DNA of 61,068 nucleotides from a virus (taxonomy: Duplodnaviria > Caudoviricetes): positions 1 to 61,068 of the IMG/VR virus record IMGVR_UViG_3300017966_000001; one strand, given 5' to 3'. This document shows, piece by piece, positions 1 to 61,068 of this stretch. The notes beneath the pieces were generated by a model. The model was given only the letters and a program-made list of their open reading frames with translations. It did no database searches and was not told the origin of the DNA. A program made the translations under genes and the position numbers. How positions within the stretch are numbered: position 1 is the stretch's first letter; each line of letters opens with the position of its first letter.

Positions 1-123
1 ATTATTCAACTTTCTGAGTTTGGAGAGATTGACGACGATGTCGTGTTTGATTTCGTTTCGCTGTATGCGATGACCGAAAAGGAGCTGAGCCTTATACGTA
101 AGTCCAATGCCGAGAGCGATCAA
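1..123. repeat. Terminal direct repeat (circular assembly overlap), copy 1
   Basis: 1-123 is identical to 60946-61068 and lies inside the portal ORF. Confidence 0.97.
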
Positions 124-231
124 TTGCATGTGCAGCTCGGCGCGGTGAGCCCTGAAGAGGTTCGGCATCGGCTGGCAAATGACCCTGATTCAGGTTGGAA
201 CAATCTAGTCACATCCGAGGGGATTGAATGA
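1..231 (+). CDS. Portal protein, C-terminal part (continues from 59686 across the junction)
   Basis: In frame with the ORF starting at 59686; ends ...SPEEVRHRLANDPDSGWNNL..., typical of DUF1073-type portal C-termini; stop overlaps the next start. Confidence 0.9.
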   Translation: MIQLSEFGEIDDDVVFDFVSLYAMTEKELSLIRKSNAESDQLHVQLGAVSPEEVRHRLANDPDSGWNNLVTSEGIE

Positions 232-1079
232 AACTCAGATCCCCACAAGGGAGGGTGACGCTTGGCTCAATCCGGCCAAGCGCTGCTGTTAGCTCCTGGT
301 ATGATAGTTATTTAAAGAAGCTAATTGTTGAAATGCGGAAGGATGTTGAACAGGCTATCCTGGCGGAATACAGCAAGAACCCGTCCAAATCAAAACTGGA
401 TCATTTGATCAATGGGCTGAACAAAACGTGGGGCAAATTCTTCAATGCCAAAGCGGATGCGCTCGCGAGAGGTCTCGTTGTTCGCTCACTGCGCCACTAC
501 GACCAAGCGTTTAATGCCGAGCTCAAATCTGCAAAGATCCCCTCCAGGCCAATCCCGAAAAAGGAAATTTCTGCATTGGGTATGGATGCTTTGCCGAAAC
601 TAAATGCAATCAAATTCCAAATCACAGATAGATTGCAAGAAACAATCGATCGCGGTGTCCGAGACAACGTTGATTTGATCACGAGCGTCCCCACAGAATA
701 CCTCGATTCAGTTCGATCTCGCGTGCGAGAGGCTGTCGAAAAAGGACGCGATACTGAAGCCCTTGCGCGAGATCTACGTGAGCGATTCGACATAACGGCT
801 CGCCGAGCTAGGACCATCGCAACTGACCAAAACAACAAAATCACGGCTCAGATCAACCAAACTAGGCAACGGGACCTTGGCATCACGCAGGCTGTTTGGA
901 TACACACGGCGGCCAGTTTGAATCCTCGTGAGTCACACGCTGAGTTCAACGGCGAGGTTTACGACGTCGAAGAAGGTGTGGATTTTGATGATGGTTTTGG
1001 TCCAGTCCTGCCTGGTGAAGCAATCAACTGTGGTTGTTTGAGTAGGTCAATAATACCTGGTTACGATGATGAGGAGTGA
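228..1079 (+). CDS. Head morphogenesis protein (MuF / SPP1 gp7 family)
   Basis: [13 protein letters not shown]-x-H...[14 protein letters not shown] motifs; directly after portal. Confidence 0.9.
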
Positions 1080-2329
1080 GTGAGATGGTCAATCAACTCG
1101 GTCGTTATCTCGACTCCTTGGCGCAGGACAGTGCTAGAACTGTGGACGCGCAGGGGTTCCTGCACGTCGCTATCAGCAATATCTCAAAAGCAACAGTCAA
1201 TCCTTATTATGGGCGAGAGATCCCGAATTACGAGAGTTTCGGACTTGATCCTGATAAAGTTTATCAAGTGCTTCGTCCTGCCGACGAGTTGGAAAAAGCA
1301 GCTACAACGTTTAATAACCTCCCTCTTTTGAACAAGCACATTGGGATTTCAGCATTTGACCTTGAGAACCCTGACGTGCAGCGTCACATCGTGGGTAGCA
1401 CTGGCTCGGAGGCTGTGTTTGACGCACCGTATCTGAAAAACAGCTTGGCAATTTATACGGCGAGCGCCATAGATGGTGTGATCAACGATTACCAACGTGA
1501 ACTATCTTGCGCCTACAGGTATGATTATGATCCGACGCCTGGGGAGTTTGAGGGTAGGTCATATGATGGACGAATGCGCAACATTATCGGGAACCATGTC
1601 GCCCTCGTCCAGGAAGGCCGCGCTGGGCATGACGTGCTAGTGGAAGATGCGGCGCTCATTGGAGCTAAGCTCAAAATCTATAAGGCGTTGAAAATTGCGT
1701 TGGATTACAACCCCTATCACGATGAGCGCGGACGATTTACTGGCGGAGAGGGCGGATCGGGCGCAGATGTCAGCTCTGTCTCCATTGGTAACAAAGCGGC
1801 TGTCGCTAGGATGAGAGACGCCCATGCTGCTAGCGGAAGCAATGTGTTACGTGTCACTGACCACAAAGACATGCATCCATATAGTGGGGTCAAGAGCATT
1901 CGAATTAATCACGAGTTGCGCAACGACCGCACATCGGACCCATTGGTCAAAAAAATGGACAGTGTGTTGAACAGGACATCTTTGCCTGAGGCTATGACGA
2001 CATATCGTGGGATTCCGGAACGTGTGGTTGAAACGACGTTTGGACAAGACGGACCCAGAATCGGTGATGTTTTCGGCGATAAAGGTTACGTGTCAACGAG
2101 CAAGAGCCGCGAGGTAGCTGAGGGGTTTTCGACAAAGTATATCATAGAGATCTCAATACCCAAGGGATCGAAAGGATATGACTATGAGCGGCCAGGGGCT
2201 AAGCCCAGCGACCCTGGGGAAAGAGAAGTGTTACTTCCTAGAGACTCGTCATTCAGGATTACTGGTGTGGAAAAGCAAAGAACGAAATTGAACGATCCAG
2301 TGACCGTCATCAAAGTGGAGAAGTTATGA
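1076..2329 (+). CDS. DUF2213-type head maturation protein fused to a C-terminal ADP-ribosyltransferase domain
   Basis: N-half: [39 protein letters not shown]-half: YRG...GYVSTS...EREVLLPR (R-S-E ART motifs). Confidence 0.85.
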
Positions 2330-2637
2330 GTGGCAAATACAATTGGGAGCACAACGAAATTGAGCTCGTCAAACGAGGCGGGAAAGGTGCGGCTGACATC
2401 GCCAAAAGAGAGGAGGTGAATCCAGAAGCAGGCAAGGAGAAATACGGCAATGTCGAATTTGCCGATCCAAAGAATAAGAAATACCCACTTGACACAGAAG
2501 CGCATGTTCGGGCGGCTTCTAGCTATTGGGGCATGCCGAAGAACAAAGCTATGTATTCCAAAGCTGACCAAGTGGCGATCACTAAACGAATTGAATCGGC
2601 GAAGAAGAGATTCAAGATTGGCGAATATGCCGAATAG
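2326..2637 (+). CDS. Small basic protein, DUF6582-like
   Basis: [24 protein letters not shown] motif; ATGA overlap with the upstream gene. Confidence 0.65.
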
Positions 2638-2718
2638 CTTATGCCCACAGTGTTATAACTGCCCTTGAAAAGTAGCGTCTTGATTGGGTACATCGTAAAT
2701 TTACGTGTGGAGGATTGC

Positions 2719-3531
2719 ATGAAAAAACTAAACGTCCAGCAGATCGCGCTGAAAAGCGGATTGCTGGGATATCTTGGCGGCAAGCTAGCAGCCGACTCCG
2801 CGCTCGAATCGGGGGAGATGGCGACCCTGATCGAAGGTGTCACCAGTGAAAATTACCACGGCCTACGAGACGTTTTAGCTTCAACAATCAAGTCTGTCTT
2901 TACTCCCCGTCTCGCCAAAGACTCCAAACTCGACGATCTCGAAGAGCTCCTTGAGGAACTCGAAGAGGAAGGCGAAGAAGGCGAAGAACTCGAAGAAGAG
3001 GACATGGACGCTTACGATTGTGGGCCTCTGGAAAAGGCCTTGATGGATCTGGAGGTTCCCAAGGAAAAGATTGCCGAGCTAATGAAATTGGTTCCAGCTA
3101 AAGCCGACAAGGCGATGGACAAAGCTAAAGATGAAGACATCGATAGTTCCGAAAGTTCCGCTATGGACGAAGACGAACTCTCAAAAAAGGAGAAGAAAGC
3201 AATGCCCGAACCCCTCGATAACAAGCAGGCAATGGATGCCGCCATCCAGGCCAGCAAGTCTGAAATCGCTGCACTTTTCAAGGCTGCTGAAGAAGTTGCC
3301 CCCCTTGTGGGCAAAATCGACGCACTTGCCATGGACTCCGCCGCCTCCATTTACAAACTCGCACTTGATGCAGCTGGCGTGGATGTGACCGGCGTTGATC
3401 CTAGCGCGTTCCGCGCCATGGTCAAGCTCATCGAAACGCAGAAAGCCAGTGCCCCTGCTCAAATCACAGCAGACGCTGCGAGCGTGGACTCCTTTGCTGC
3501 CCGTTACAAGCACATTCCTTCCAAACTTTAA
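2719..3531 (+). CDS. Capsid scaffolding protein
   Basis: GGAGG RBS before ATG 2719; acidic, helical, repeated AMD motifs; lies before decoration and capsid genes. Confidence 0.75.
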   Translation: MKKLNVQQIALKSGLLGYLGGKLAADSALESGEMATLIEGVTSENYHGLRDVLASTIKSVFTPRLAKDSKLDDLEELLEELEEEGEEGEELEEEDMDAYDCGPLEKALMDLEVPKEKIAELMKLVPAKADKAMDKAKDEDIDSSESSAMDEDELSKKEKKAMPEPLDNKQAMDAAIQASKSEIAALFKAAEEVAPLVGKIDALAMDSAASIYKLALDAAGVDVTGVDPSAFRAMVKLIETQKASAPAQITADAASVDSFAARYKHIPSKL

Positions 3532-3543
3532 GGAGATAAAGAC

Positions 3544-4524
3544 ATGGCAGGTTTCCAGAAACAGGCAAATATTTACCTGGCACCTGGCGTGCCGGGGCAG
3601 TTTGCCAGCACAAACCCCTTCAGTGCGATTGTTGCCGGGCCCGGTGGTCTGGTGGCAGGTTTCCTTGGCTGCGTAGTTGGTAAATTCGCATGGATTACAT
3701 ATGCGATTGCCGGTGGCCCGGGTGTTGCTAACAGTTTTGGCGAAGGCGGCGTGGTACCTGACGGTTTCGTTGGCGCCGACATGCAGGCCTTGATCACCGA
3801 TTTCCTCGGTTCAGATTCCATGGTGGTGCCTAGCGGTATCCCCGTGACGCTGTTCGATCGTGGCGATTTCTGGGCACAGAGCTTTGGTGAAGCGGCGATT
3901 GGTCAGAAAGCCTTCGCCAATCTCTTCACTGGCGACGTGCTCGCTGCAGCTTCCGGAGCTTTCCCGACAACCTCTTTCGGTTCCGCAGTTATTGCTGCGG
4001 CCACTTTGGTGGCTGGTTCTTATAGCATGAACGTCACGGCTGTGACTAGCGGCGTGCTGGCTGTTGGTCAGCTGGTCAGTGGTGCCGGCATCGCGCCTGG
4101 GACATTTATCGAGAGTCTCGGTAATGGATCTGGGTCCACCGGAACTTATAACCTCAGTCGCGCTGCTCAGGTTGCTGGAACCGCTGTCGCGATTGCTTGT
4201 GCTGTTCCCGCGGCGGTTGGTGGTGCGGTGGCCACGTGCTCTTGCTCCAGTGCTAGCCCCACGATGACCGTTACCACCTTGACCGCCGGTTCCTCCGTTG
4301 TAGCTGGCATGTTGGTGTCTGGCACGAATGTTCCCGCGGGCACTTACATTGCCGGCATTGTGAGTGGCGGCGGAGGCAATGGCAGCGTGATCACGCTGAG
4401 CGCCAATGCGAGCGATACTATCTCCGGCGCGTCGATCAAGTTCAGCAGCTGGGTTGAAACTCCGTTTGTGATCAAGTCTGCCGGCAATGTGGGTGATGTC
4501 ATCAAAATTGGTGTGAAAAACTAA
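3544..4524 (+). CDS. Capsid decoration/cement protein with two inserted beta-rich repeats
   Basis: N-term APGVPGQFASTNP...RGDFWA...GQKAFA and C-term WVETPFVIKSAG...KIG; immediately upstream of the major capsid gene. Confidence 0.7.
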   Translation: MAGFQKQANIYLAPGVPGQFASTNPFSAIVAGPGGLVAGFLGCVVGKFAWITYAIAGGPGVANSFGEGGVVPDGFVGADMQALITDFLGSDSMVVPSGIPVTLFDRGDFWAQSFGEAAIGQKAFANLFTGDVLAAASGAFPTTSFGSAVIAAATLVAGSYSMNVTAVTSGVLAVGQLVSGAGIAPGTFIESLGNGSGSTGTYNLSRAAQVAGTAVAIACAVPAAVGGAVATCSCSSASPTMTVTTLTAGSSVVAGMLVSGTNVPAGTYIAGIVSGGGGNGSVITLSANASDTISGASIKFSSWVETPFVIKSAGNVGDVIKIGVKN

Positions 4525-4537
4525 AGGAGCTTGAAAC

Positions 4538-5557
4538 ATGGCAAAGATTAACCCCCATATCCCGCTGCTCGCAGAGCACTACGGGATTGTTTTTCCCGGT
4601 GCAACGGACTACCTGCCCCGGTTTGGCATGGACGGCGCTCCCACAAATGCGCTCCAGTCTCCCCTTGTCACCCAGATGAACCAGGGTATTCCCGCGTTTC
4701 TAGTGACAATGATTGATCCCGAGGTGACTCGGATTCTCACCACTCCCCCCAAGGCTGCCGAGATTCTGGGTGAAGCCAAGAAGGGCGATTGGACGACTAA
4801 GGTTGATCTGTTCCCCGTGGTTGAGAGTGTCGGTGAGGTTTCCAGTTACGGCGATTTCAGCACTAATGGTATGGCTAATGCCAATATCAATTGGGTGTCC
4901 AGGCAGAGCTATCATTTTGAAGCCCAGACTCGATGGGGTGATCTCGAATTGGAGAATGCCGGCAAAGGCAAGATCGACCTGGCTGCTGAAAAGAACATTG
5001 CCTGTGCTCACCTGTTCGCCAAGGCCTTGAACAAGAGCTATTTCTTTGGCGTGGATGGTCTGGAAAACTACGGCCTGCTTAATGATCCCAGCCTCAGCCC
5101 CAGTTTGGCACCTACCAAGGCTTGGTCCGGCGCAACCGGCGTTGAGATTGTGGCCGATATCAATCGGCTGTATCAGCAGCTGCAGATCCAGATGCCCGAC
5201 ATGATCGAGCCGGATGCTGAGATGGTGCTGGCACTGTCTCCCAAGATCCTACCCTATCTCAGCGTGCCCATGCAGAATGTTTACGGCACTAGCTCTGTCA
5301 AGGCCTACCTGAAGGATCTGTTCCCCAACATGGAAGTCAAGACTGCAGCTGAATACAGCCTCGCCGCTGGTGAGCTCGTGCAGTTGATTGCCAAAAACGT
5401 GATGGGCCAGCAGACTGGTTTCTGCGCGTTTACTGAAAAGATGCGGGCCCACGCAATTGTCAGGATGAGCTCCTACACCGAACAGAAGAAGTCCGCCGGA
5501 ACCTGGGGTGCCGTCATCAAACAGCCTGGTGCGATCGCCAGCATGATTGGGGTCTAA
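4538..5557 (+). CDS. Major capsid protein (DUF2184-type)
   Basis: KKGDW, SSYGDFS, FFGVDGLENYGLLNDPSL, FTEKMRAH...QKKSAGTWGAVI motifs; AAGGAG RBS. Confidence 0.9.
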   Translation: MAKINPHIPLLAEHYGIVFPGATDYLPRFGMDGAPTNALQSPLVTQMNQGIPAFLVTMIDPEVTRILTTPPKAAEILGEAKKGDWTTKVDLFPVVESVGEVSSYGDFSTNGMANANINWVSRQSYHFEAQTRWGDLELENAGKGKIDLAAEKNIACAHLFAKALNKSYFFGVDGLENYGLLNDPSLSPSLAPTKAWSGATGVEIVADINRLYQQLQIQMPDMIEPDAEMVLALSPKILPYLSVPMQNVYGTSSVKAYLKDLFPNMEVKTAAEYSLAAGELVQLIAKNVMGQQTGFCAFTEKMRAHAIVRMSSYTEQKKSAGTWGAVIKQPGAIASMIGV

Positions 5558-5562
5558 GTTAA

Positions 5563-5916
5563 ATGGCTAACGAAACCGTCATCGTCGGGTGCAAATTGCC
5601 CAACGGCCTGATCCTCCAAGTAGGGGACAAGCGCGTGTGCCTTCGCGGTTCTGCTATTCCCAAACAACCCAATGCAAAAAATGCCGATTCTCGGGAATTT
5701 TTGTATGCCGACTCGATCAGCCTTGTTGACAGGGTTTTTTGGGAGGCATGGGTTGCTCAGGTTGGGACCGATTTCCGTCCACTCAAATCCGGCGCAATTT
5801 ATGCTAGCAATAGCAAAACAGATGCCACTTCGAAGGCCAAAGAGACCGAGCGTCTCAAAACCGGATTTGAAGGCTACCAACCCAGAGTGGATGGATTGCA
5901 GGAAGTTAGTCGTTAA
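5563..5916 (+). CDS. Conserved head-region protein
   Basis: VIVGCKLPNGL N-terminus and KTGFE C-terminus, as seen after capsid genes in this phage type. Confidence 0.65.
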   Translation: MANETVIVGCKLPNGLILQVGDKRVCLRGSAIPKQPNAKNADSREFLYADSISLVDRVFWEAWVAQVGTDFRPLKSGAIYASNSKTDATSKAKETERLKTGFEGYQPRVDGLQEVSR

Positions 5917-5929
5917 TTAGGAGTTGTAA

Positions 5930-6352
5930 ATGGCTGTTGCTGTGTTCAACCTCACGTTGTTTCGGGCTCGTTATCCCGAATTTGCCACGTTGGGTGACGA
6001 CATAGTGACGGCCATTTTCTCTGAGTCTACACTCTATTGCAACAACACTGACAACTCAGTCATTGCTGATGTTAACGTGCGCTTGACGCTGCTCAACATG
6101 ATGACCGCACATTTGTTGGCTATCAACTTCGGCGTGAACGGCCAGGCCCCTAGCTCCCTTGTGGGTAAACTATCCAACGTCAAAGAAGGTTCGGTCTCCG
6201 CAACTGTCGACTATGGGTCTCTGAGCCGTAATCAGCAGTGGTTTTGCCAGACTAAATATGGCGCGGCCTTTTGGCAAGCGTCTTTGCCTTATCGATCCGC
6301 ACTCTATGTGCCTCCCCCGTCTCAGCCCGTTGTTTTCGTACCGAGGGCGTGA
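5930..6352 (+). CDS. Head-tail adaptor (DUF4054-type)
   Basis: FRARYPEF, EGSVS, WFCQTKYGAAFWQ. Confidence 0.85.
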   Translation: MAVAVFNLTLFRARYPEFATLGDDIVTAIFSESTLYCNNTDNSVIADVNVRLTLLNMMTAHLLAINFGVNGQAPSSLVGKLSNVKEGSVSATVDYGSLSRNQQWFCQTKYGAAFWQASLPYRSALYVPPPSQPVVFVPRA

Positions 6353-18514: not shown

Positions 18515-18820
18515 CTATTTGTGCTTCCGTGCAGCTTCACGCATCTTCACCAGATCGTCGAGCGAGTATTTGGTACTGTTGGCTAGCATCCGGCCAATTT
18601 CTTCAGGAGTGGCTTCGCGACCTTCGTTGACAGTTTTTGCAGCGAGTGATTCCGGGCTGTTGGGATCGGCAGCAGATTTGATGGTTTCAGCCGCTTCAGT
18701 CTGATGGATCTGCTCAACTTGCAGCGCCATGATCCCGCGAACTACACAATAAGCACCACCAGAGAAGCCGATGAGCAAGCTAGCTGTTGCAACAAGAATG
18801 AACTGGGTTGTGGTCTTCAT
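18515..18820 (-). CDS. Hypothetical protein with N-terminal transmembrane helix
   Basis: Hydrophobic residues 7-30; overlaps the upstream stop. Confidence 0.6.
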   Translation of the reverse strand: MKTTTQFILVATASLLIGFSGGAYCVVRGIMALQVEQIHQTEAAETIKSAADPNSPESLAAKTVNEGREATPEEIGRMLANSTKYSLDDLVKMREAARKHK

Positions 18821-19764
18821 TTAGTCCTCGCAGCCATAAAGGCTTTATGCAGCGATTTTACTTTCTTGGTGGTCGCATTTGGGATCACACCATTGTATTT
18901 GCTATAATCAAACGGCTCGTTCGAACTCATATCGCAATTGAACCCACTCCTTGAAAGAAGCAAGACAATTGCCTCTCTTGATAGACTCGTAGGCTTATCA
19001 AAGAGCATCATTTTTTGAGGAAAAGTGTTGCAAAACCCTGTGGCGAAATCGGTATTGTTCCAGTCGCCTGTGTTGCTGTCGCCTGTGTTCCAGTCGCCTG
19101 TGTTCCTGTGGCCTGTGTTCCTGTAGCCTGTGTTGCTGTGGCCTGTGTTGCTGTGGCCGGTGTTCCTGTCGCCTGTGTTGCTGTCGCCTGTGTTCCTGTG
19201 GCCTGTGTTGCTGTAGCCTGTGTTGCTGTCGCCTGTGTTGCTGTCGCCTGTGTTCCTGTGGCCTGTGTTGCTGTAGCCTGTGTTGCTGTGGCCTGTGTTG
19301 CTGTGGCCGGTGTTCCTGTCGCCTGTGTTGCTGTCGCCTGTGTTCCTGTGGCCTGTGTTGCTGTAGCCTGTGTTGCCGTGGCCTGTGTTCCTGTAGCCTG
19401 TGTTCCAGTCGCCTGTGTTCCTGTGGCCTGTGTTGCTGTGGCCTGTGTTGCTGTTGGCATCAAATTTAATTTCTTCAACTAACTCAATTCGCCGGGCCAC
19501 CATTTTATGGTCTGCACCTGGCTCGATAGCTGCATCCAACACATCATACGCTCTGATTTTGAATACACGCCCTGAACTGTAATAAGCCCAAACTCCAGAA
19601 GGATGTTTGCAAAAATGGATACCGTTTTTACAAGGTTCGAGAGGGTCATCGTTGCTCAATTCGTTGATTTCTCCAAAGACGTATTGTTTATCTCGACAAG
19701 TCAAGTCGTTGTTGAAAATCTTATATCCGTCAATGGGTCCGGGGAGTTCTTTATATTCGTGCAT
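18817..19764 (-). CDS. Pentapeptide (NTGxx) repeat protein with a conserved phage N-terminal domain
   Basis: GYKIFNNDLTCRDKQY...CKNGIHFC domain, then 26 NTGxx units. Confidence 0.85.
   Translation of the reverse strand: MHEYKELPGPIDGYKIFNNDLTCRDKQYVFGEINELSNDDPLEPCKNGIHFCKHPSGVWAYYSSGRVFKIRAYDVLDAAIEPGADHKMVARRIELVEEIKFDANSNTGHSNTGHRNTGDWNTGYRNTGHGNTGYSNTGHRNTGDSNTGDRNTGHSNTGHSNTGYSNTGHRNTGDSNTGDSNTGYSNTGHRNTGDSNTGDRNTGHSNTGHSNTGYRNTGHRNTGDWNTGDSNTGDWNNTDFATGFCNTFPQKMMLFDKPTSLSREAIVLLLSRSGFNCDMSSNEPFDYSKYNGVIPNATTKKVKSLHKAFMAARTK
19060..19449. repeat. 26 x 15-bp coding tandem repeat
   Basis: Minus-strand unit AAC ACA GGC (C/G/T)AC (AGC/AGG/TGG/GGC). Confidence 0.95.
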
Positions 19765-37399: not shown

Positions 37400-38110
37400 G
37401 TCAATTTCTTGACCGATTCTCAATACAAGGTGCAAATCGCATGCAACTCTAATCAAAACACACCATATTCACAATACACAAAATACAAGATTTTTCGATC
37501 AAACTTTATGCGGAGTATGCGCATAATACATCAATACATGAAAATCGTGTTCAGACTGTATGCAGTATTTTATGCAGAAACTCGCATAAAAACACAACAT
37601 TCGATCGCATAAGATAGATACTTTGCATAAACACACCAATTTCAATGGGTTGCTCAATACATTGAATACAAGATTTTTCGTTCAGGCTATATGCAGAAAA
37701 ATATGCAGTTTCTGCATAACCTATGGGTAGAATTTGCCTATAGGGGTGTCATACATGAGCCGCATTTTCATACATACAGCCATTTTGCATTTAAGTGCTT
37801 AAAAATCAATAACTTAACATTATACACCAAAATACAAGATTTCAGTATCATACATGGGGTAGGGGAGGGGGCCTACAGGGGGCCTACAGGGGGAAATACA
37901 CCACCTCCCCTGAGCGATCACTCTGACCCCTTTTAAGTGTATTGTATGTATTATGTAAGTAGTAGTAGTAGTAGTAGTTATGTAATGTATATTATATGTA
38001 TTTTTGTGTATGTTTGTAAGTAGTAGTAATAGTAGTATTTATATAAGTATATATTATTATTTATATTTATATATTTATCTTATTTTTACTTCTTTTTCTA
38101 TTGACATTCT
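37400..38110. other. Putative replication origin / AT-rich non-coding control region
   Basis: AATACAAGATTT(TTCG) at 37482, 37665 and 37831; GGGGGCCTACA tandem; (TAG)n and AT-only tract 37936-38100; next to the primase gene at the strand divergence point. Confidence 0.55.
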
Positions 38111-40359: not shown

Positions 40360-40757
40360 AGGCGACTTTATCTCTTGAGTATATAGGTGAGTCTTGTGAT
40401 GCCAGGCTCATACTGGAGTCCATGAAACTCGACTATGCGTTTGGTGGTAATTTTGGTAAGGCTGTTATTGGTAACACCAAGGCACGTCGACCATGGGTGG
40501 CTGAAATTGTTGACAAATCAGACAAATTTGGATTTGACAGAAGATTTTTAAAAGGCAAGATTCAATATGCCGGATCAAACAGCACTGGATCACGCGGTGT
40601 TGAGTTATGGTTTATTTTAGAGTCTGAGCATCTCTATGAGGTGAAACGGTATACTTCGTGGAAATCATCCGAACGTTATTTTTGCACTGTTACTCCATCC
40701 GGCGGAATCGCCCTAATTGTGGATGTGGACCAATGGCTAAGCGACCACTCGGGATAA
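40356..40757 (+). CDS. Hypothetical protein coupled to the IbrA-like gene
   Basis: PWVAEI...R.FL.G...Y...NS.GSRGV..W..L....LYEV...SW...RYFC; overlaps ibrA. Confidence 0.7.
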   Translation: MKATLSLEYIGESCDARLILESMKLDYAFGGNFGKAVIGNTKARRPWVAEIVDKSDKFGFDRRFLKGKIQYAGSNSTGSRGVELWFILESEHLYEVKRYTSWKSSERYFCTVTPSGGIALIVDVDQWLSDHSG

Positions 40758-41932
40758 ACGTGTTAGACGCTGCAACTGAGCGCATTCGTTCAGTTTTTGA
40801 TGATTTTCCGAGAATATACGTCAGCTTTAGTGGCGGTAAAGATAGCTCTGTCATGCTTCATCTGGTTATGCATGAAGCCATTCGACGTAGGCGTAAGGTC
40901 GGTGTGCTATTTGTTGACCTGGAAGCTCAGTATGCGCTAACAATAACCCATATTCAAGAGCTATACGACAGGTATGCGGAATACATTGAGCCATACTGGG
41001 TCGCTCTACCCATACACCTACGAAATGCTGTCAGTCAATATGAGCCGCAATGGGTGTGTTGGGAGCCAGGTAAAGAAGCCGATTGGGTTAGAGACGCTCC
41101 AGAGATGGCGATTACAGATGAACGTTATTTTCCGTTCTTTCGTCGAGCCATGGAGTTTGAAGAGTTTGTTCCATTATTTGGTGAGTGGTATGCGCAGGGG
41201 AAGCTGTGTGCCTGCTTTGTGGGGATTCGCTCAGACGAATCGTTGAACCGATACAGGACGGTGTCCTCCAACACCAAGGGTTCGTTTGAAGGTAAGAAAT
41301 GGACCACTTGGCTCGGTAATTGCGTTTACAACGTCTACCCTATATACGACTGGCGAACAGAAGATATCTGGACGTTTAACGGGCGATTTAAAGCTCCTTA
41401 CAATAAATTGTATGATCGGATGCACCAGGCTGGGCTAACGATCCACCAAGCCCGTATTTGTCAACCTTATGGTGATGACCAGCGGAAGGGGTTGTGGTTG
41501 TTTCACATCATTGAACCTGAGACGTGGGGCAAGGTTGTGGCTAGAGTCAATGGGGCAAATCAGGGCGCTCTCTATGTCCAGGAGTCAGGAAACATCTTGG
41601 GTTATCGAAAAATTAGCAAGCCGGCTCATCTGACGTGGCAGAAATTTGCGGAGATGATTCTAGCCAGTCAACCACCTGCAACAGCTGAGCAATACCGCAA
41701 TAAAATCGCAGTTTTTCTACGATGGTATCAACAGCGAGGTTACCCAACCGGCATTCCGGACGAGGGGAGTGCCACCGATAAGGCCACTCCGAGCTGGACT
41801 AGAATATGTAAAGCCTTGCTGCGCAACGATTATTGGTGTAAGGGTTTGTCTTTCTCGCAGAACAAGACCGAAGCGTTCTCAAAATACCAGGCGTTGATGA
41901 AAAAACGGAGATCTGAGTGGGGGTTGATTTGA
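40733..41932 (+). CDS. ibrA: PAPS-reductase/PP-loop family protein with DUF3440-type C-terminus (IbrA/YbdN-like)
   Basis: VSFSGGKDS PP-loop, DLEAQY, GIRSDESLNRY, YPIYDW, SWTRICKALLRNDYWCKGLSF. Confidence 0.88.
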   Translation: MAKRPLGINVLDAATERIRSVFDDFPRIYVSFSGGKDSSVMLHLVMHEAIRRRRKVGVLFVDLEAQYALTITHIQELYDRYAEYIEPYWVALPIHLRNAVSQYEPQWVCWEPGKEADWVRDAPEMAITDERYFPFFRRAMEFEEFVPLFGEWYAQGKLCACFVGIRSDESLNRYRTVSSNTKGSFEGKKWTTWLGNCVYNVYPIYDWRTEDIWTFNGRFKAPYNKLYDRMHQAGLTIHQARICQPYGDDQRKGLWLFHIIEPETWGKVVARVNGANQGALYVQESGNILGYRKISKPAHLTWQKFAEMILASQPPATAEQYRNKIAVFLRWYQQRGYPTGIPDEGSATDKATPSWTRICKALLRNDYWCKGLSFSQNKTEAFSKYQALMKKRRSEWGLI

Positions 41933-42564
41933 ATCACAAACAGATTGTAGAAGCTGCAATAGATGTTTTTCGCGAACTGGAAGTCATTGATGAGGATTCC
42001 AGAGTTGACGTTATCAATGATATTCGCAAAGCTTTACGAGAGTATTCACCCATGCGTCGTGAACCTGTAGATTGCATTCTGTGGGTTAAGGCTGACGAAC
42101 TTCATGCTAATGATTATAATCCAAACAGTGTGGCTCCTCCTGAAATGCGTCTGTTGCAATTGTCAATTATGCAGGATGGTTACACACAACCCATTGTGGC
42201 TTGGCCTGATGCTGGTGGCACCTATGAGGTGGTAGATGGGTTTCATCGCAACCGTGTGGCTAGGGAGGTAGGTTCAGTTAAAAAACGGGTTCGTGGTCGA
42301 ATGCCCATAGCTGTCATAAATCCAGACCGGACCAGCAAAGAAGATCGCATTGCTGCTACCATACGTCACAACCGAGCAAGGGGTAAACATCAAGTCGACG
42401 CCATGGCAGATATCGTGTTGGATCTGAGTCGCAGGAACTGGGATGATGCGAAGATTGCCAAGGAGCTAGGTATGGAAGCTGACGAAGTTTTGAGGCTGAA
42501 ACAAGTTACTGGTTTGGCTGAGTTATTCGCAGACCGTGATTTCAGTGAAGCTTGGGAAGCATAA
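41929..42564 (+). CDS. ibrB: ParB/Srx-domain protein (IbrB/YbdM-like)
   Basis: ANDYNPNSVAPPEM, DGYTQPIV, VVDGFHR, ATIRHNRARGKH, C-terminal HTH. Confidence 0.9.
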   Translation: MNHKQIVEAAIDVFRELEVIDEDSRVDVINDIRKALREYSPMRREPVDCILWVKADELHANDYNPNSVAPPEMRLLQLSIMQDGYTQPIVAWPDAGGTYEVVDGFHRNRVAREVGSVKKRVRGRMPIAVINPDRTSKEDRIAATIRHNRARGKHQVDAMADIVLDLSRRNWDDAKIAKELGMEADEVLRLKQVTGLAELFADRDFSEAWEA

Positions 42565-53581: not shown

Positions 53582-56500
53582 ATGACGGCTAAAAAGCCTC
53601 TAATTCGATACCCAAGCGGGCCGGGCTTCCAGGAAGCCCAGCTCGCATCTAGCGATTTATCCGATGGACCATCCCAACCATTGGATGCGACGTTAACGGC
53701 GTTAGCTGGGTTAGACACGGTTACGGGGCTCGTATATCAAACCGGCGCGGATACGTTCACCAAGGTCGCCGGCTCATACAGTGCCGGTGTCGTAGTGCTT
53801 CCAGGCATAACCGATAACGGTAATGGCACAGTCACACTAAACAATAATGGTGTTGTAAATCTGTACAGTTCTTCTGGGTCAGTTACGCCACTGAAGAGCT
53901 ACCCCCTGACTGGTGGAACGTTTTCTCTAACTGACTTAACGACCAACTTTATATATGTCGATTACAATAGTGGGGCCCCAATATACGCTAGCACTGCAAA
54001 TCGTGACTTGATTAACAGTCATTATTTGATGGATCGCACAGTAGTATACACGATTGAGCGCAATGGGCTCGCACTGAATATAACGGATTGGGATCAAACT
54101 GGCATTGGGCTCACCGAAAAAGCCCTCAACCGTCGATTCGATGTTGACGCCAGATACCAACGTTCACGGTCGGTAGGTGGCCTGGCTATTTCTGACACAG
54201 GCTCCAATACATTCGCCCTGTCGGCTGGACGAGTTTGGGACCCAATCAAATATTATGACCTCGGAGCAGTTGCGAGTGGAAGCGATACAGTGTGGCTGGC
54301 GTATCAGGACGCTAGCTTAGTATGGCACACCAGCGCGGTCACAACATACAACAACACTCAGTACAACGATGCGACAGGCCTCGTTATACTGAGCACGAAT
54401 AAATACGCAGTCAACCACATCTGGCGGTTGGTATCTGCGACAACTAAGACGGTTTGGATTGTCCTCGGGAGGGGGGATTACAAACTCCTGGATGCCCAAT
54501 CGGCGCCTACACCACCAGCACCGCCATTCGTGAGTCCGTTAGCGATATACTGTGGTCGGATCATCGTTCAAAAGAACGCCTCAACAGCTACTCAGATTGA
54601 TTCAGCATTTACACAGAATTTGGGGTCCGCGCCGGTTCTCGTTCACAACGATTTAACAGGGCGTGATGCTGTTGATTGCCATCCAGTCGCCAGCATTACA
54701 GGTGCTGCTCCGGATATGTCTGCGATCACCAAAGAAGTGACTGGTTTTGCTGATCCAGGCGCAGTTGTGCTCAACTATGACCCAACTGCTCGGACGATAC
54801 AACTCACCGGGACAGCAACGGCATATTGGCGTAATACACTGGTAAGCTCGCTCACGTCTGGGTGGGTGAGCAGTGCCCACACTAATACGACCGGGCATGT
54901 CTATTGGCTCTACTACGACGGAGCCAATTTCCTGTGGGCGACAGATTCGTTCCCAGGCTTCGATAAACTGCTGATCGCTATCGTGAATTTCGGGGCGTCT
55001 GACAAATATGCTATGCGAGAATGTCACGGTGTCATGCAGTGGCAGGTCCATGAGGAGTTTCACGACACGGTAGGGACCTATCGCGAGTCCGGTGGAGCGG
55101 TTGGGGGTTACACTCTTGCGTCGACGACGGCTACTGAGCGTAGGCCATCTGTGACCCAGACTGTGATCCAGGATGAGGATAACACAACTACACTCCCAGC
55201 TTTAGCTGACAATGGCCCATATACGCAGATATACTTAGCCTCCACTGGCACATCCACGTATGCGGTTGACGCGGCTGAAATCGTTCCAGTGTCAGGTAGC
55301 AATCCATATTACAATAGCTTTTCAAGCCCCAACTGGGCTCAAACGCTGATGCCCGCCAACTCTGTGGGCACAGTTTGGCTCATGGGCATCCCAGCAACGG
55401 CCAGCGCAACGAGTCAGAAATACAGGTTCCTGTGGATACAACCTCAATGGATCACTCAGGCTCAGAGCACTTCCCCTGCCAACCTGGCTACCGCACGAGC
55501 CACCGAGCTATTGCGATCGCCAAGTGAGTTAAACCTAGGCACATTTGCCAGTGAGGTGCCTGAGCATGTGATTTTTGCACGGTTGACGATTCAATACACG
55601 GGTGGTAATTGGACGATCGAGGCGGTAAATGTTGTAAATGGCACGCGATACTCTCAATTTGGATCGCCGTCTGGTAATTTTCTGTCTAGTGTCGCAGTTG
55701 CGAGTCCTCTGACTGGATCAGGTGTTCTCACAGATCCGCTTACAATCGCAGCTGCAACAGCATCCGTGCCTGGCTATATGACTTCGGCGCAAGCCGGCGT
55801 CATATCCCAGATCATAACAACCGCTGGGCAGACCTATACACTGCCGGCGACTAGTGCAACTCTGGCCAGGACTGACGCAGGTCAGACTTTCACCGGCACG
55901 GAAGTCTTTAATGGCGTTGTTCAAATCCTGGGCGGCGACACTAAAGGCGTCACCTTCCGTGGCAACATCCTTAATAGTGAAGAATACAACGGTGCGACGT
56001 TCATCGCTGTTAACTATCATGGTTACAACAATGGGGTCACACAGTTCCGTGATTTCCGAGTTTACGATGGCAAAGCGAATCAGCTCCTCTTCGTAGACGC
56101 CGCTAATGCGCGGGTCGAACTGACTGCGACAACAGGGCGTGCGCTCCAAGTGGATTCTACCACAGCAGCGACGACACCGACCAATGGCGCGGTTTATGTG
56201 GTCGGAGGAATCGGAACCTCAGATTACTTCTGTGGGAAGTATCGTTCGTCCGACGGCACGGCTGGCGCCACAGTCACATTAACCGGCGCGCCCAGCGCAA
56301 TGACAATCAAAGACGGCATAATTACGTCGGCTTCCCCTGGCTCCGGTGGGGCATTGAACACCCGAGCGGAGGCGGCCCACACAACAGCGTTATTGGCCGC
56401 CAATGCGACCGAAACATTCACGTTGACTCTCAATAAACTCAGCGGGATCATTAAAATCGCGACGGATTACCCGGCTTGGATTAGAATCTATGGCACGGAC

Positions 56501-56734
56501 GCAGCTAGGACGAGCGATAACAGCCGATTGATCAATACTGACCCAGCTGCAAATATTGCATTGTATATGGATGCTGCAACAAATTCTGCGCTGTCGTTAA
56601 CAATCGTGCCGGTCAAGTTGTTCGCGAACATGGATTCACCAACGGCAAATACTGCCTATGTGTCAGTGCAAAATTTAGACGCTGTGAGCCGGGCGATAAC
56701 GTTGACTGTAACTTACCTTGGTCTGGAGGCTTGA
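53582..56734 (+). CDS. Long fibre protein (1050 aa)
   Basis: QPLDATLTALAGL fibre motif; Thr/Gly/Ser-rich beta domains; HNDLTGRD and GYMTSAQ fibre linkers. Confidence 0.75.
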   Translation: MTAKKPLIRYPSGPGFQEAQLASSDLSDGPSQPLDATLTALAGLDTVTGLVYQTGADTFTKVAGSYSAGVVVLPGITDNGNGTVTLNNNGVVNLYSSSGSVTPLKSYPLTGGTFSLTDLTTNFIYVDYNSGAPIYASTANRDLINSHYLMDRTVVYTIERNGLALNITDWDQTGIGLTEKALNRRFDVDARYQRSRSVGGLAISDTGSNTFALSAGRVWDPIKYYDLGAVASGSDTVWLAYQDASLVWHTSAVTTYNNTQYNDATGLVILSTNKYAVNHIWRLVSATTKTVWIVLGRGDYKLLDAQSAPTPPAPPFVSPLAIYCGRIIVQKNASTATQIDSAFTQNLGSAPVLVHNDLTGRDAVDCHPVASITGAAPDMSAITKEVTGFADPGAVVLNYDPTARTIQLTGTATAYWRNTLVSSLTSGWVSSAHTNTTGHVYWLYYDGANFLWATDSFPGFDKLLIAIVNFGASDKYAMRECHGVMQWQVHEEFHDTVGTYRESGGAVGGYTLASTTATERRPSVTQTVIQDEDNTTTLPALADNGPYTQIYLASTGTSTYAVDAAEIVPVSGSNPYYNSFSSPNWAQTLMPANSVGTVWLMGIPATASATSQKYRFLWIQPQWITQAQSTSPANLATARATELLRSPSELNLGTFASEVPEHVIFARLTIQYTGGNWTIEAVNVVNGTRYSQFGSPSGNFLSSVAVASPLTGSGVLTDPLTIAAATASVPGYMTSAQAGVISQIITTAGQTYTLPATSATLARTDAGQTFTGTEVFNGVVQILGGDTKGVTFRGNILNSEEYNGATFIAVNYHGYNNGVTQFRDFRVYDGKANQLLFVDAANARVELTATTGRALQVDSTTAATTPTNGAVYVVGGIGTSDYFCGKYRSSDGTAGATVTLTGAPSAMTIKDGIITSASPGSGGALNTRAEAAHTTALLAANATETFTLTLNKLSGIIKIATDYPAWIRIYGTDAARTSDNSRLINTDPAANIALYMDAATNSALSLTIVPVKLFANMDSPTANTAYVSVQNLDAVSRAITLTVTYLGLEA

Positions 56735-59685: not shown

Positions 59686-61068
59686 ATGCTGAAACGATTT
59701 TGGGACAAACTGAGTGGACGGCAGACAGCCCATAGGGCAGCGAGGTCCATTGAGCAAGATCTCGCTGAGATGCGGTTCGCTCAGTCACAGCGGATCTATG
59801 GTGCAATCGCTGACCACTTAGCTAGCTTGGATAGCGGCAAGCCTGAGCCCATCCAGTTTAAAATAGCTGCGTATGTCCCACCAGTGGGTGTCGCACCGGC
59901 TTCGCATGTCAAGGGCGCAACGCTTGCAATGGATGCTACGATCACCAATATGCAGGGCAGCAATGCACAATTCTTCAGTTTGCTAGGGTTCCCCGGTTTC
60001 CCTTTCTTAACTGAGCTTGCGCAGATCTCGGAGTATCGGGACATTTCTGAGCGCTCGGCTTCTGAGATGGTTCGCAAGTGGGTCAAGTTTAGATCTGTGG
60101 GTAACAAAGACCAGAGCGAAAAGATTCAGGCAATTGAAGCCTGCTTGCGCAAACACCACGTTCGCGATCTGTTTAGGCAGTGCGCTGTGTATGACGGCTT
60201 CTTTGGCCGCTCACAGCTCTTCGTCAATTTGGGAGACACCGAGGGTTCGGAACTAGCGACGCCGTTGATTTTGTCTCCGGCAAAGATCAAAAAGGGCTCG
60301 CTCAAATGCTTCAAGATCATTGAGCCGATCACCACTTATCCAGCGCAATACAACGCCTCTCGCCCTCTGCAACCGGATTATTACAAGCCGTCTTCTTGGT
60401 TCGTCTACGGGCAAGAAGTGCATTCTTCACGGTTATTGCTGTTTGAGTCTCGCCCTTTGCCTGATCTGCTGAAGCCGGTTTACAACTTTTCTGGTATAAG
60501 TCTTTCCCAACTAGCTCAGCCGTATGTTGACTATTGGCTCAACACTCGCGAATCTGTAGGCAAACTACTCCGCAATTTCTCGACAACGTCTTTGTCCACG
60601 GACCTCTCTGGGCTCATTGCCACCGGCGGGGATGAGCTGTTGAACCGTATTCGGTTATTCACTCAGACTCGTGACAATCAGGGCATTTTCCTGCTCGATT
60701 CGGGGATGGGGCAAAGCGGCGAACAACTTAGTCAGATCAACACCCCTCTGTCTGGGTTAGATAAACTCCAGGCGCAGGCGCAGGAGCACATGGCGGCTGT
60801 GGCCAAAACGCCCTTGTCGATACTCCTGGGCATCACGCCGACCGGCTTGAATGCGTCAAGCGACAGTGAAATTAGGATTTTCTATGACTACGTGTCAGAT
60901 CAGCAGGAAGTGTTGTTTAGGAGGAACTTAGAAACAGTTGTAAAAATTATTCAACTTTCTGAGTTTGGAGAGATTGACGACGATGTCGTGTTTGATTTCG
61001 TTTCGCTGTATGCGATGACCGAAAAGGAGCTGAGCCTTATACGTAAGTCCAATGCCGAGAGCGATCAA
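59686..61068 (+). CDS. Portal protein (DUF1073-type), continues at 124-231; 496 aa in total; absent from the ORF track because it wraps
   Basis: MLKRFWDKL...FPGFPFLTELAQISEYR...VHSSRLL...LKPVYNFSGISLSQLA...QAQAQEHMAAVAKTP...LLGITPTGLNASSD. Confidence 0.92.
   Translation, partial: MLKRFWDKLSGRQTAHRAARSIEQDLAEMRFAQSQRIYGAIADHLASLDSGKPEPIQFKIAAYVPPVGVAPASHVKGATLAMDATITNMQGSNAQFFSLLGFPGFPFLTELAQISEYRDISERSASEMVRKWVKFRSVGNKDQSEKIQAIEACLRKHHVRDLFRQCAVYDGFFGRSQLFVNLGDTEGSELATPLILSPAKIKKGSLKCFKIIEPITTYPAQYNASRPLQPDYYKPSSWFVYGQEVHSSRLLLFESRPLPDLLKPVYNFSGISLSQLAQPYVDYWLNTRESVGKLLRNFSTTSLSTDLSGLIATGGDELLNRIRLFTQTRDNQGIFLLDSGMGQSGEQLSQINTPLSGLDKLQAQAQEHMAAVAKTPLSILLGITPTGLNASSDSEIRIFYDYVSDQQEVLFRRNLETVVKIIQLSEFGEIDDDVVFDFVSLYAMTEKELSLIRKSNAESDQ
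60946..61068. repeat. Terminal direct repeat (circular assembly overlap), copy 2
   Basis: Identical to 1-123. Confidence 0.97.

Follow-up and report, generated by a model that had tools for sequence, protein, structure and literature searches.

A capsid maturation protease joined to an ADP-ribosyltransferase in an uncultured phage: a candidate head-delivered effector

Main finding

The head-assembly module of an uncultured tailed phage (Caudoviricetes; IMG/VR virus record IMGVR_UViG_3300017966_000001) was found to contain a gene whose product joins a DUF2213 prohead protease, through a linker, to an ADP-ribosyltransferase (ART). The window analysed is the whole record of 61,068 bases. The identities and folds of the two domains, the intact catalytic motifs of the ART, the location of the gene in the head module, and the recurrent attachment of this ART family and other effectors to capsid-internal carriers are shown by the analysis. 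On balance, we lean toward the protease–ART fusion being a late two-domain protein, whose ART would be packaged via the protease, freed, ejected with the DNA, and able to modify host proteins.

The two domains of the fusion protein

The open reading frame (ORF) of the fusion opens with GTG 1076, which overlaps the stop codon of the preceding MuF gene, and contains ATG 1085 8 nt behind a GAGGAG (1071-1076). ATG 1085 is more likely to be the start, and the form recorded in the protein collection, present on three contigs, is the 414-aa ATG form; the numbering used here is that of the 417-aa form. Pfam matched residues 22-191 to DUF2213 (161 bits compared with a cutoff of 22, E 2.6e-47) and residues 261-404 to ADPrib_exo_Tox (PF03496; 67.9 bits compared with a cutoff of 23.4, E 9.4e-19), and chance motif matches were excluded because both profile scores far exceeded the curated cutoffs. 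The motif strings from which the original prediction had read a DUF2213 domain, a linker, and a domain with YRG, STS, and E-R-E were all located in the protein (GNHVALV at 172, IALD at 207, TTYRG at 308 with R311, STS at 340, and GEREV at 381 with E382 and E384), and this division agreed with the Pfam assignments.

In a phmmer comparison with PDB sequences, residues 277-398 were aligned to VIP2 (E 2e-7), with YRG corresponding to YRW, YVSTS to YMSTS, and GEREVLL to SEKEILL. R311, S340, T341, E382, and E384 were invariant in all seven aligned sequences (the ART and six homologues), as were an upstream Y..IN..LR helix and an L-L-x-R following the ExE. In the AlphaFold 2 (AF2) model, residues 256-417 formed a confident core (block predicted local distance difference test (pLDDT) values mostly 75-93), and residues 200-255 were predicted to be disordered (pLDDT < 50). 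Foldseek searches of the PDB with the ART returned Plx2A (2.7e-12), C3bot1 (3.5e-12), VIP2 (1.2e-11), CDTa, and iota Ia, with E values of about 1e-12 to 1e-10, as well as C3larvin and Certhrax; each had a probability of 1.00, and there were 156 matches at E <= 0.001. Judged from these alignments and the predicted fold, the C-terminal domain is a C3/VIP2-class R-S-ExE mono-ADP-ribosyltransferase with intact catalytic motifs; the original prediction of an R-S-E ART with an ExE motif was thus supported by the profile, the VIP2 alignment, and the predicted fold. In this class, E-x-E in place of Q-x-E predicts arginine as acceptor, and the ART is therefore predicted to be arginine-specific.

The DUF2213 domain has the assemblin fold (herpesvirus-assemblin/T4 gp21 type). 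Its residues H88, S144, and H174 were invariant in 150 of 150 sequences and constitute a candidate catalytic His-Ser-His set. The domain is most likely the prohead maturation protease of the phage, as had been proposed. The claim that the MuF protein has no toxin and that the toxin sits on the next head protein also held, because the MuF protein was only 283 aa long and showed no C-terminal extension in Pfam.

Composition gave no signal of a recent foreign insertion of the ART (GC content of 0.477 for the ART core, compared with 0.496 for the genome).

Effector domains on DUF2213 proteases and other capsid-internal carriers

The domain census covered the best 149 of 8,120 DUF2213 matches (Pfam, E <= 1e-5). 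DUF2213 was found in all 149, and 60 carried at least one further Pfam family, consistent with the effector slot that had been postulated on the protease. NUDIX was the most frequent (35/149, N-terminal), followed by DUF6582 (15/149, C-terminal of the protease) and ADPrib_exo_Tox (5/149). Topoisom_I (TopoIB) was found C-terminally in two representatives (P0015 and P0035) and DUF5710 in two, while Acb1, which counters the cyclic-oligonucleotide-based antiphage signalling system (CBASS), the RNase PBECR1, and LPD3 were found in one each (P0053, P0144, and P0058, respectively). The suggestion that DUF2213 homologues be examined for variable C-terminal domains was thus fruitful, as ART, TopoIB, and DUF6582 were among such additions.

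The ART-bearing representatives differed in layout. P0004 (436 aa) had the same domain order as the fusion, with 50% identity over residues 15-402, and P0042 (1675 aa) had the order NUDIX, protease, and ART. In P0014, P0036, and P0044, the ART was N-terminal on a protease–scaffold protein. When the ART part alone was used as the query, matches were obtained in 29 phage records, the best of which were four Pseudomonas syringae phages (Orisa/Orimi). These encode a single 703-aa protein containing Phage_portal_3 (100-453) and ADPrib_exo_Tox (545-681) in Pfam, followed by MuF and then by a 430-aa DUF2213 protein. Some Microbacterium phage genes are labelled 'capsid maturation protease', and the one that was checked, Krampus gp14, gave the ART family only (Pfam); one Microbacterium phage record labels its gene as an ART domain and MuF-like fusion. 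By these domain assignments, the same ART family is found on three capsid-internal carriers, namely the portal C-terminus, the protease N-terminus, and the protease C-terminus. A match to DUF2213 was obtained in 594 phage records, and in no case was 80% of the fusion protein covered. A word-indexed search with residues 200-417 gave three matches among 521 candidates, one of which was a frameshifted copy.

A separate observation concerned P0053 (630 aa), in which Acb1 (PF23474, E 4.4e-40, residues 15-162) lies N-terminal to the DUF2213 protease; this arrangement suggests a capsid-delivered anti-CBASS nuclease.

Junction motif and candidate cleavage sites

The motif H-[PD]-x(2-4)-G-[KRQ]-F, mostly followed by glycines, preceded the ART in the fusion (HDERGRF), P0004, P0014, and P0036. 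The same junction motif was present before the portal-borne ART of Orisa03 (KHPRSDDGKFG; L006:2270-4381, around residues 525-540) and before other cargo modules; its regular expression matched 25 of the 149 representatives, approximately 21 of which were convincing by eye. A second motif, NPxG[IV]NQY, was found in 15 of the 149 and was often repeated.

A-x-D was the most enriched spaced pair after the protease domain in 139 relatives (1076 observed vs 579 expected, z 23, which is not an independent count because the sequences are homologous), and the residue after it was most often A, S, or E. The scaffold of this phage contained nine A-x-D sites vs 3.9 expected, and the portal, MuF, cement-like, and major capsid proteins were at expectation. 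Four A-x-D sites were located in the fusion (16-18, 93-95, 131-133, and 208-210), with none in residues 211-417. The first lies at the N-terminal boundary of the protease, in a family column with A in 91% and D in 98% of the sequences; the C-terminal boundary is marked by V-x-D191, followed by S or A, with an invariant D. As A-x-D is enriched both in the relatives and in the scaffold of the same phage, ALD210 may be regarded as a reasonable candidate cleavage site.

Single A-x-D sites were also observed in two neighbouring products, near the N-terminus of the major capsid protein (ATD, residues 22-24) and exactly at the start of the Pfam domain in the DUF6582 ORF (AAD, residues 22-24); both are possible processing sites.

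A split protease–scaffold unit

The profile of PHROG 2229 (428 positions) matched the fusion with its own positions 9-188 and the downstream ORF 2665-3531 with its positions 204-422. A 418-aa protein of Aeromonas phage 4_D05 showed the same relation, as its residues 8-178 were aligned to the protease domain (58% identity) and its residues 316-410 to the C-terminus of the downstream scaffold ORF. A profile of the scaffold C-terminus was found in the same chain in 102 of the 149 DUF2213 representatives; the 47 without it, some of which may be fragments, include all the closest relatives of the fusion. DUF6582 was located between the protease and the scaffold in P0007, P0012, and P0013. From the fused layouts of these relatives, the ancestral order protease, insert, DUF6582, and scaffold has been retained in this phage but is spread over three ORFs, the ART occupying the insert slot. 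Going by this homology, the usual protease–scaffold gene is split here, and the fusion is without the scaffold domain, which would serve as its anchor in the procapsid. In the ORF listing, the scaffold begins at TTG 2665; GGAGGA precedes ATG 2719, which is most likely the start.

A programmed rejoining of the three ORFs was considered and rejected. No X XXY YYZ heptamer was present in the ART frame at 2200-2326 to support a programmed frameshift or readthrough joining the ART, DUF6582, and the scaffold, and readthrough from DUF6582 into the scaffold was ruled out by two in-frame stops in between. A recombination scar was also suggested by MAFFT, in which the C-terminal strand of the protease was paired with the first ~22 residues encoded by the DUF6582 ORF; in a blastp-short test, however, the best score was 19.7 bits, whereas 50 shuffles averaged 19.0 and reached 24.8, and the pairing was rejected as an alignment artefact.

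DUF6582 is also fused, in ESM Atlas clusters, to Peptidase_S78 prohead proteases, an inorganic pyrophosphatase domain, and guanylate cyclase domains; in one cluster, which serves as a lead only, 98% of the 54 members carry both DUF6582 and Peptidase_S78. Because it is fused to proteases lacking an ART, DUF6582 is probably a head-module domain that is independent of the ART. Co-folding of the ART core with DUF6582 gave a score of 0.00 in both runs, which were made without controls and speak neither for nor against binding. No paper naming DUF6582 was found in the literature search.

A frameshifted variant of the fusion gene

One protein in the collection, P0001 (301 aa), was identical to the fusion up to K293 and then diverged as expected from one extra A in the A7 homopolymer. 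Members of 115 aa, located on contigs of 24,320 and 23,571 bp, supply the remainder of the A8-split gene (301 + 115 aa). The A7 form was found in assembled contigs of two peat-metagenome runs, possibly the source samples of the record, with no difference from the window; this check used assembled contigs only, in which minor variants are invisible. Either an error in assembly or natural variation yielding an ART-null gene would account for the A8 form.

Proposed role of the fusion and alternative explanations

As a prohead protease must enter the procapsid, the ART would come along, and the protease domain would thus carry it into the assembling procapsid. The protease would then cut the disordered linker, for which A-L-D210 is the best candidate site; the freed ART would stay in the head, exit with the DNA at the next infection, and ADP-ribosylate host proteins in the new host, as T4 Alt does. 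In this sequence of events, the packaging of the ART, the place at which the linker is cut, the exit with the DNA, and the target in the host are inferred. Precedent is provided by T4 Alt, by effector fusions to MuF, the portal, and peptidases, and by the presence of the Pa193 DUF2213-scaffold protein in virions.

Several observations weigh against this proposal. The weak point is the entry of the protease–ART protein into the procapsid, because no scaffold C-terminal domain is present in the fusion, and in Pa193 it is this part that is seen attached to the inside of the capsid; the protease probably enters by a non-covalent route, as separate protease genes are common in the clade. Two of the four A-x-D sites in the fusion (93-95 and 131-133) lie inside the folded protease core, in addition to the shared ancestry of the sequences counted above. 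The A8 form truncates the ART, so the ART may be dispensable, unless that form is an assembly error. A search of IMG/VR for close ART relatives gave 66 pattern matches, none of which was confirmed, and for the P0004 locus only the protease part was found, at two IMG/VR loci and one JGI metagenome locus.

A rather unlikely alternative, although the strongest competitor, is that the ART acts on host or phage proteins late in the cell that produces the phage, as T4 ModA and ModB do, with its fusion to the protease serving co-expression only and with neither packaging nor injection. Most relatives are anchored in the capsid by a scaffold domain; its absence from the fusion would fit such a role, as would the expression of the gene with the late genes. 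However, the occurrence of one ART family on three capsid-internal carriers is difficult to explain if the location in the head is irrelevant, and a prohead protease needs to enter the procapsid to function. The notion that the ART is a passenger domain in decay, without any present function, draws on the A8 form with its 301-aa and 115-aa products, and is improbable given that the frame is open in the window, the catalytic residues are intact and invariant across seven homologues, the intact 414-aa form is present on three contigs, and the contigs of the two metagenome runs (possibly the source samples) are identical; the GC content of the ART is also similar to that of the neighbouring genes.

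The ATGA overlap between the ART stop codon and the 103-aa DUF6582 ORF resembles the arrangement of MuF polymorphic toxins, for which a small coupled ORF after the toxin suggests immunity in the relevant sections of PMC5576092; the DUF6582 product would then be the immunity protein of an ART toxin. This is decidedly improbable, since DUF6582 is fused to ART-less DUF2213 proteases in 15 of the 149 representatives, lies between the protease and the scaffold in three, and, as a lead, is attached to Peptidase_S78 proteases in the Atlas cluster. Moreover, MuF toxins are reported from temperate phages, and the scanned ORFs yielded no integrase or other gene for lysogeny. The least probable of the explanations weighed is that the ART modifies phage proteins or DNA inside the head and not host targets. 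A packaged ART would indeed be confined with phage components; nevertheless, its closest structural relatives (C3, VIP2, CDTa, iota Ia, and Plx2A) are protein-modifying enzymes, and a sealed capsid would presumably have no source of NAD.

Beyond the packaging and ejection of this ART, a broader interpretation is conceivable but doubtful. The DUF2213 protease could parallel MuF as a general, self-releasing cargo loader that brings exchangeable effectors (ART, Nudix, Acb1, TopoIB, and PBECR RNase), borne on either terminus, to the procapsid and releases them at bracketing A-x-D sites, with the junction motif marking retention or ejection and with the system split in this phage into protease–cargo, DUF6582, and scaffold. 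Because the system is divided into separate genes here, this interpretation would imply non-covalent entry of the protease.

Head module and genome context

The fusion gene lies in the head-assembly module, adjoining the scaffold and major capsid protein genes (Table 1). The 123-bp terminal repeat of the record falls within the portal gene, indicating a circular assembly of ~60.9 kb. The genome encodes a contractile-tail phage with a tail sheath and baseplate, and genes for nucleotide metabolism accompany those for its own DNA polymerase, helicase, and primase. Neither an integrase nor a repressor family was detected among 56 ORFs (PHROGs) or 52 ORFs (Pfam), many small ORFs having no assignment, and the same scans, at the thresholds used, revealed no ADP-ribose-removing enzyme, second ART, or integrase elsewhere in the genome. 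A promoter and terminator scan of positions 1-6000 gave the same counts as shuffled controls.

Table 1. Coordinates of the head-module genes and of the elements within the fusion gene
Feature	Position	Strand	Remarks
Portal gene, 5' part	59686..61068	+	Continues at 124-231 across the 123-bp end overlap; 496 aa in total; no ART extension
Portal gene, 3' end	1..231	+	Phage_portal_3 (PF06381), E 3.5e-5 on a 76-aa fragment
MuF-like head morphogenesis protein, 283 aa	228..1079	+	Phage_Mu_F (PF04233) at residues 161-270; phrog_324
Protease–ART fusion ORF, 417 aa from GTG 1076	1076..2329	+	Pfam DUF2213 and ADPrib_exo_Tox
DUF2213 domain, residues 22-191	1139..1648	+	Assemblin/T4 gp21-fold prohead protease
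Linker, residues 192-255	1649..1840	+	Short helix; ALD 208-210 (nt 1697-1705); junction motif 211-229 (nt 1706-1762)
ART core, residues 256-417	1841..2326	+	R311 (nt 2006-2008), S340-T-S342 (2093-2101), E382-R-E384 (2219-2227)
A7 homopolymer	1949..1955	+	Within the fusion gene, 5' of the catalytic Arg codon
DUF6582 ORF, 103 aa	2326..2637	+	Pfam; start codon overlaps the stop codon of the ART (ATGA)
Scaffold protein, 270 aa from ATG 2719	2719..3531	+	Homologous to the C-terminal half of canonical DUF2213-scaffold proteins
Minor capsid/cement-like protein	3544..4524	+	PF23982, PF22758; PHROGs
Major capsid protein (MCP)	4538..5557	+	Pfam, PHROGs; 43% identical to the Orisa03 MCP

Four further features were noted elsewhere in the genome. 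A 315-aa pentapeptide-repeat protein (18817-19764, minus strand; PF01469, E 1e-30, and DUF7666) is encoded by a gene built from a 15-nt tandem repeat array of ~26 copies. A gene for a PAPS-reductase/DUF3440 protein is overlapped by the gene after it, for a ParB-like protein (40658-42564, plus strand); the two may form a DNA-modification or anti-defence module. Between the terminase and portal genes lies a 1050-aa ORF (53582-56734, plus strand) with no Pfam family, a weak PHROG match at its C-terminus only, and tail-fibre-like ORFs on either side. A direct repeat of 26-43 nt occurs in three copies among small ORFs at 37472-37853, with spacings of 183 and 166 nt, and may have a regulatory or origin function.

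Significance

Injected proteins are active before any phage gene is expressed, and the outcome of early conflicts with the defences of the host thus depends on them. As this case shows, such enzymes can be borne by the maturation protease as well as by MuF and the portal, and one ART family moves among the portal, the protease N-terminus, and the protease C-terminus in homologous head modules. These side observations (the protease as a hub for cargo, the switching of the ART from carrier to carrier, and the A-x-D sites along with the junction motif) may outweigh the single gene. If the A-x-D sites and the junction motif are functional, packaged effectors would be predictable from sequence, and a simple tag would be available for loading chosen proteins into capsids. 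The phage group concerned is widespread and includes laboratory phages of Pseudomonas, Acinetobacter, Burkholderia, and Aeromonas.

Comparison with known systems

Head-packaged ARTs and effector fusions to head proteins are a known strategy, for which DUF2213 is an unusual carrier. Fusions of effectors to MuF, the portal, and assemblin-like or capsid-processing peptidases are described in passages of PMC5512222 and PMC9503650. The literature search, judged from listings and with survey figures and data files outside its scope, returned no paper naming DUF2213 together with an ART; likewise, the term 'DUF2213' was absent from the text of the polyvalent-protein surveys of Iyer et al., the figures lying outside that check.

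T4 Alt is processed by the assemblin-fold prohead protease gp21. Like Alt, the ART described here belongs to the R-S-E class and is made late, and head carriage and action on the host are proposed for it. The two are not orthologues, as the PHROG 'RNA polymerase ADP-ribosylase' was matched at E 0.0027 only, and Alt is a separate protein, whereas the present ART is covalently joined to the protease itself. Packaging of Alt in the head and its injection are documented in passages of PMC5512222 and PMC9503650.

The MuF toxins (Jamet 2017; the E. faecalis EFV toxin; Microbacterium MuF-ART) share with the fusion a head-module carrier near the portal and a variable C-terminal effector, often an ART, according to the sections of PMC5576092 that treat them. 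They differ in that the carrier here is DUF2213, with MuF being a separate and short protein of 283 aa, in that no lysogeny genes were seen among the scanned ORFs, and in that the downstream ORF is a common partner of the protease, unlike a dedicated immunity gene. Polyvalent proteins, as outlined in parts of Iyer et al. 2017 and 2022, also fuse effector domains to virion proteins, and two domains defined in that work, LPD3 and PBECR1, occur on DUF2213 relatives; the present protein has two domains only, one effector and one virion-assembly peptidase.

The DUF2213-scaffold protein gp24 of Pa193, which has the DUF2213 domain in common with the fusion (E 8.6e-12) and no ART, was detected in virions by liquid chromatography–mass spectrometry, as stated in a part of PMC11456595. 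Orisa03 gp4 lies in a homologous head module and contains a 31%-identical ART behind its KHPRSDDGKFG junction; there, the ART is on the portal, and the 430-aa protease retains the scaffold domain.
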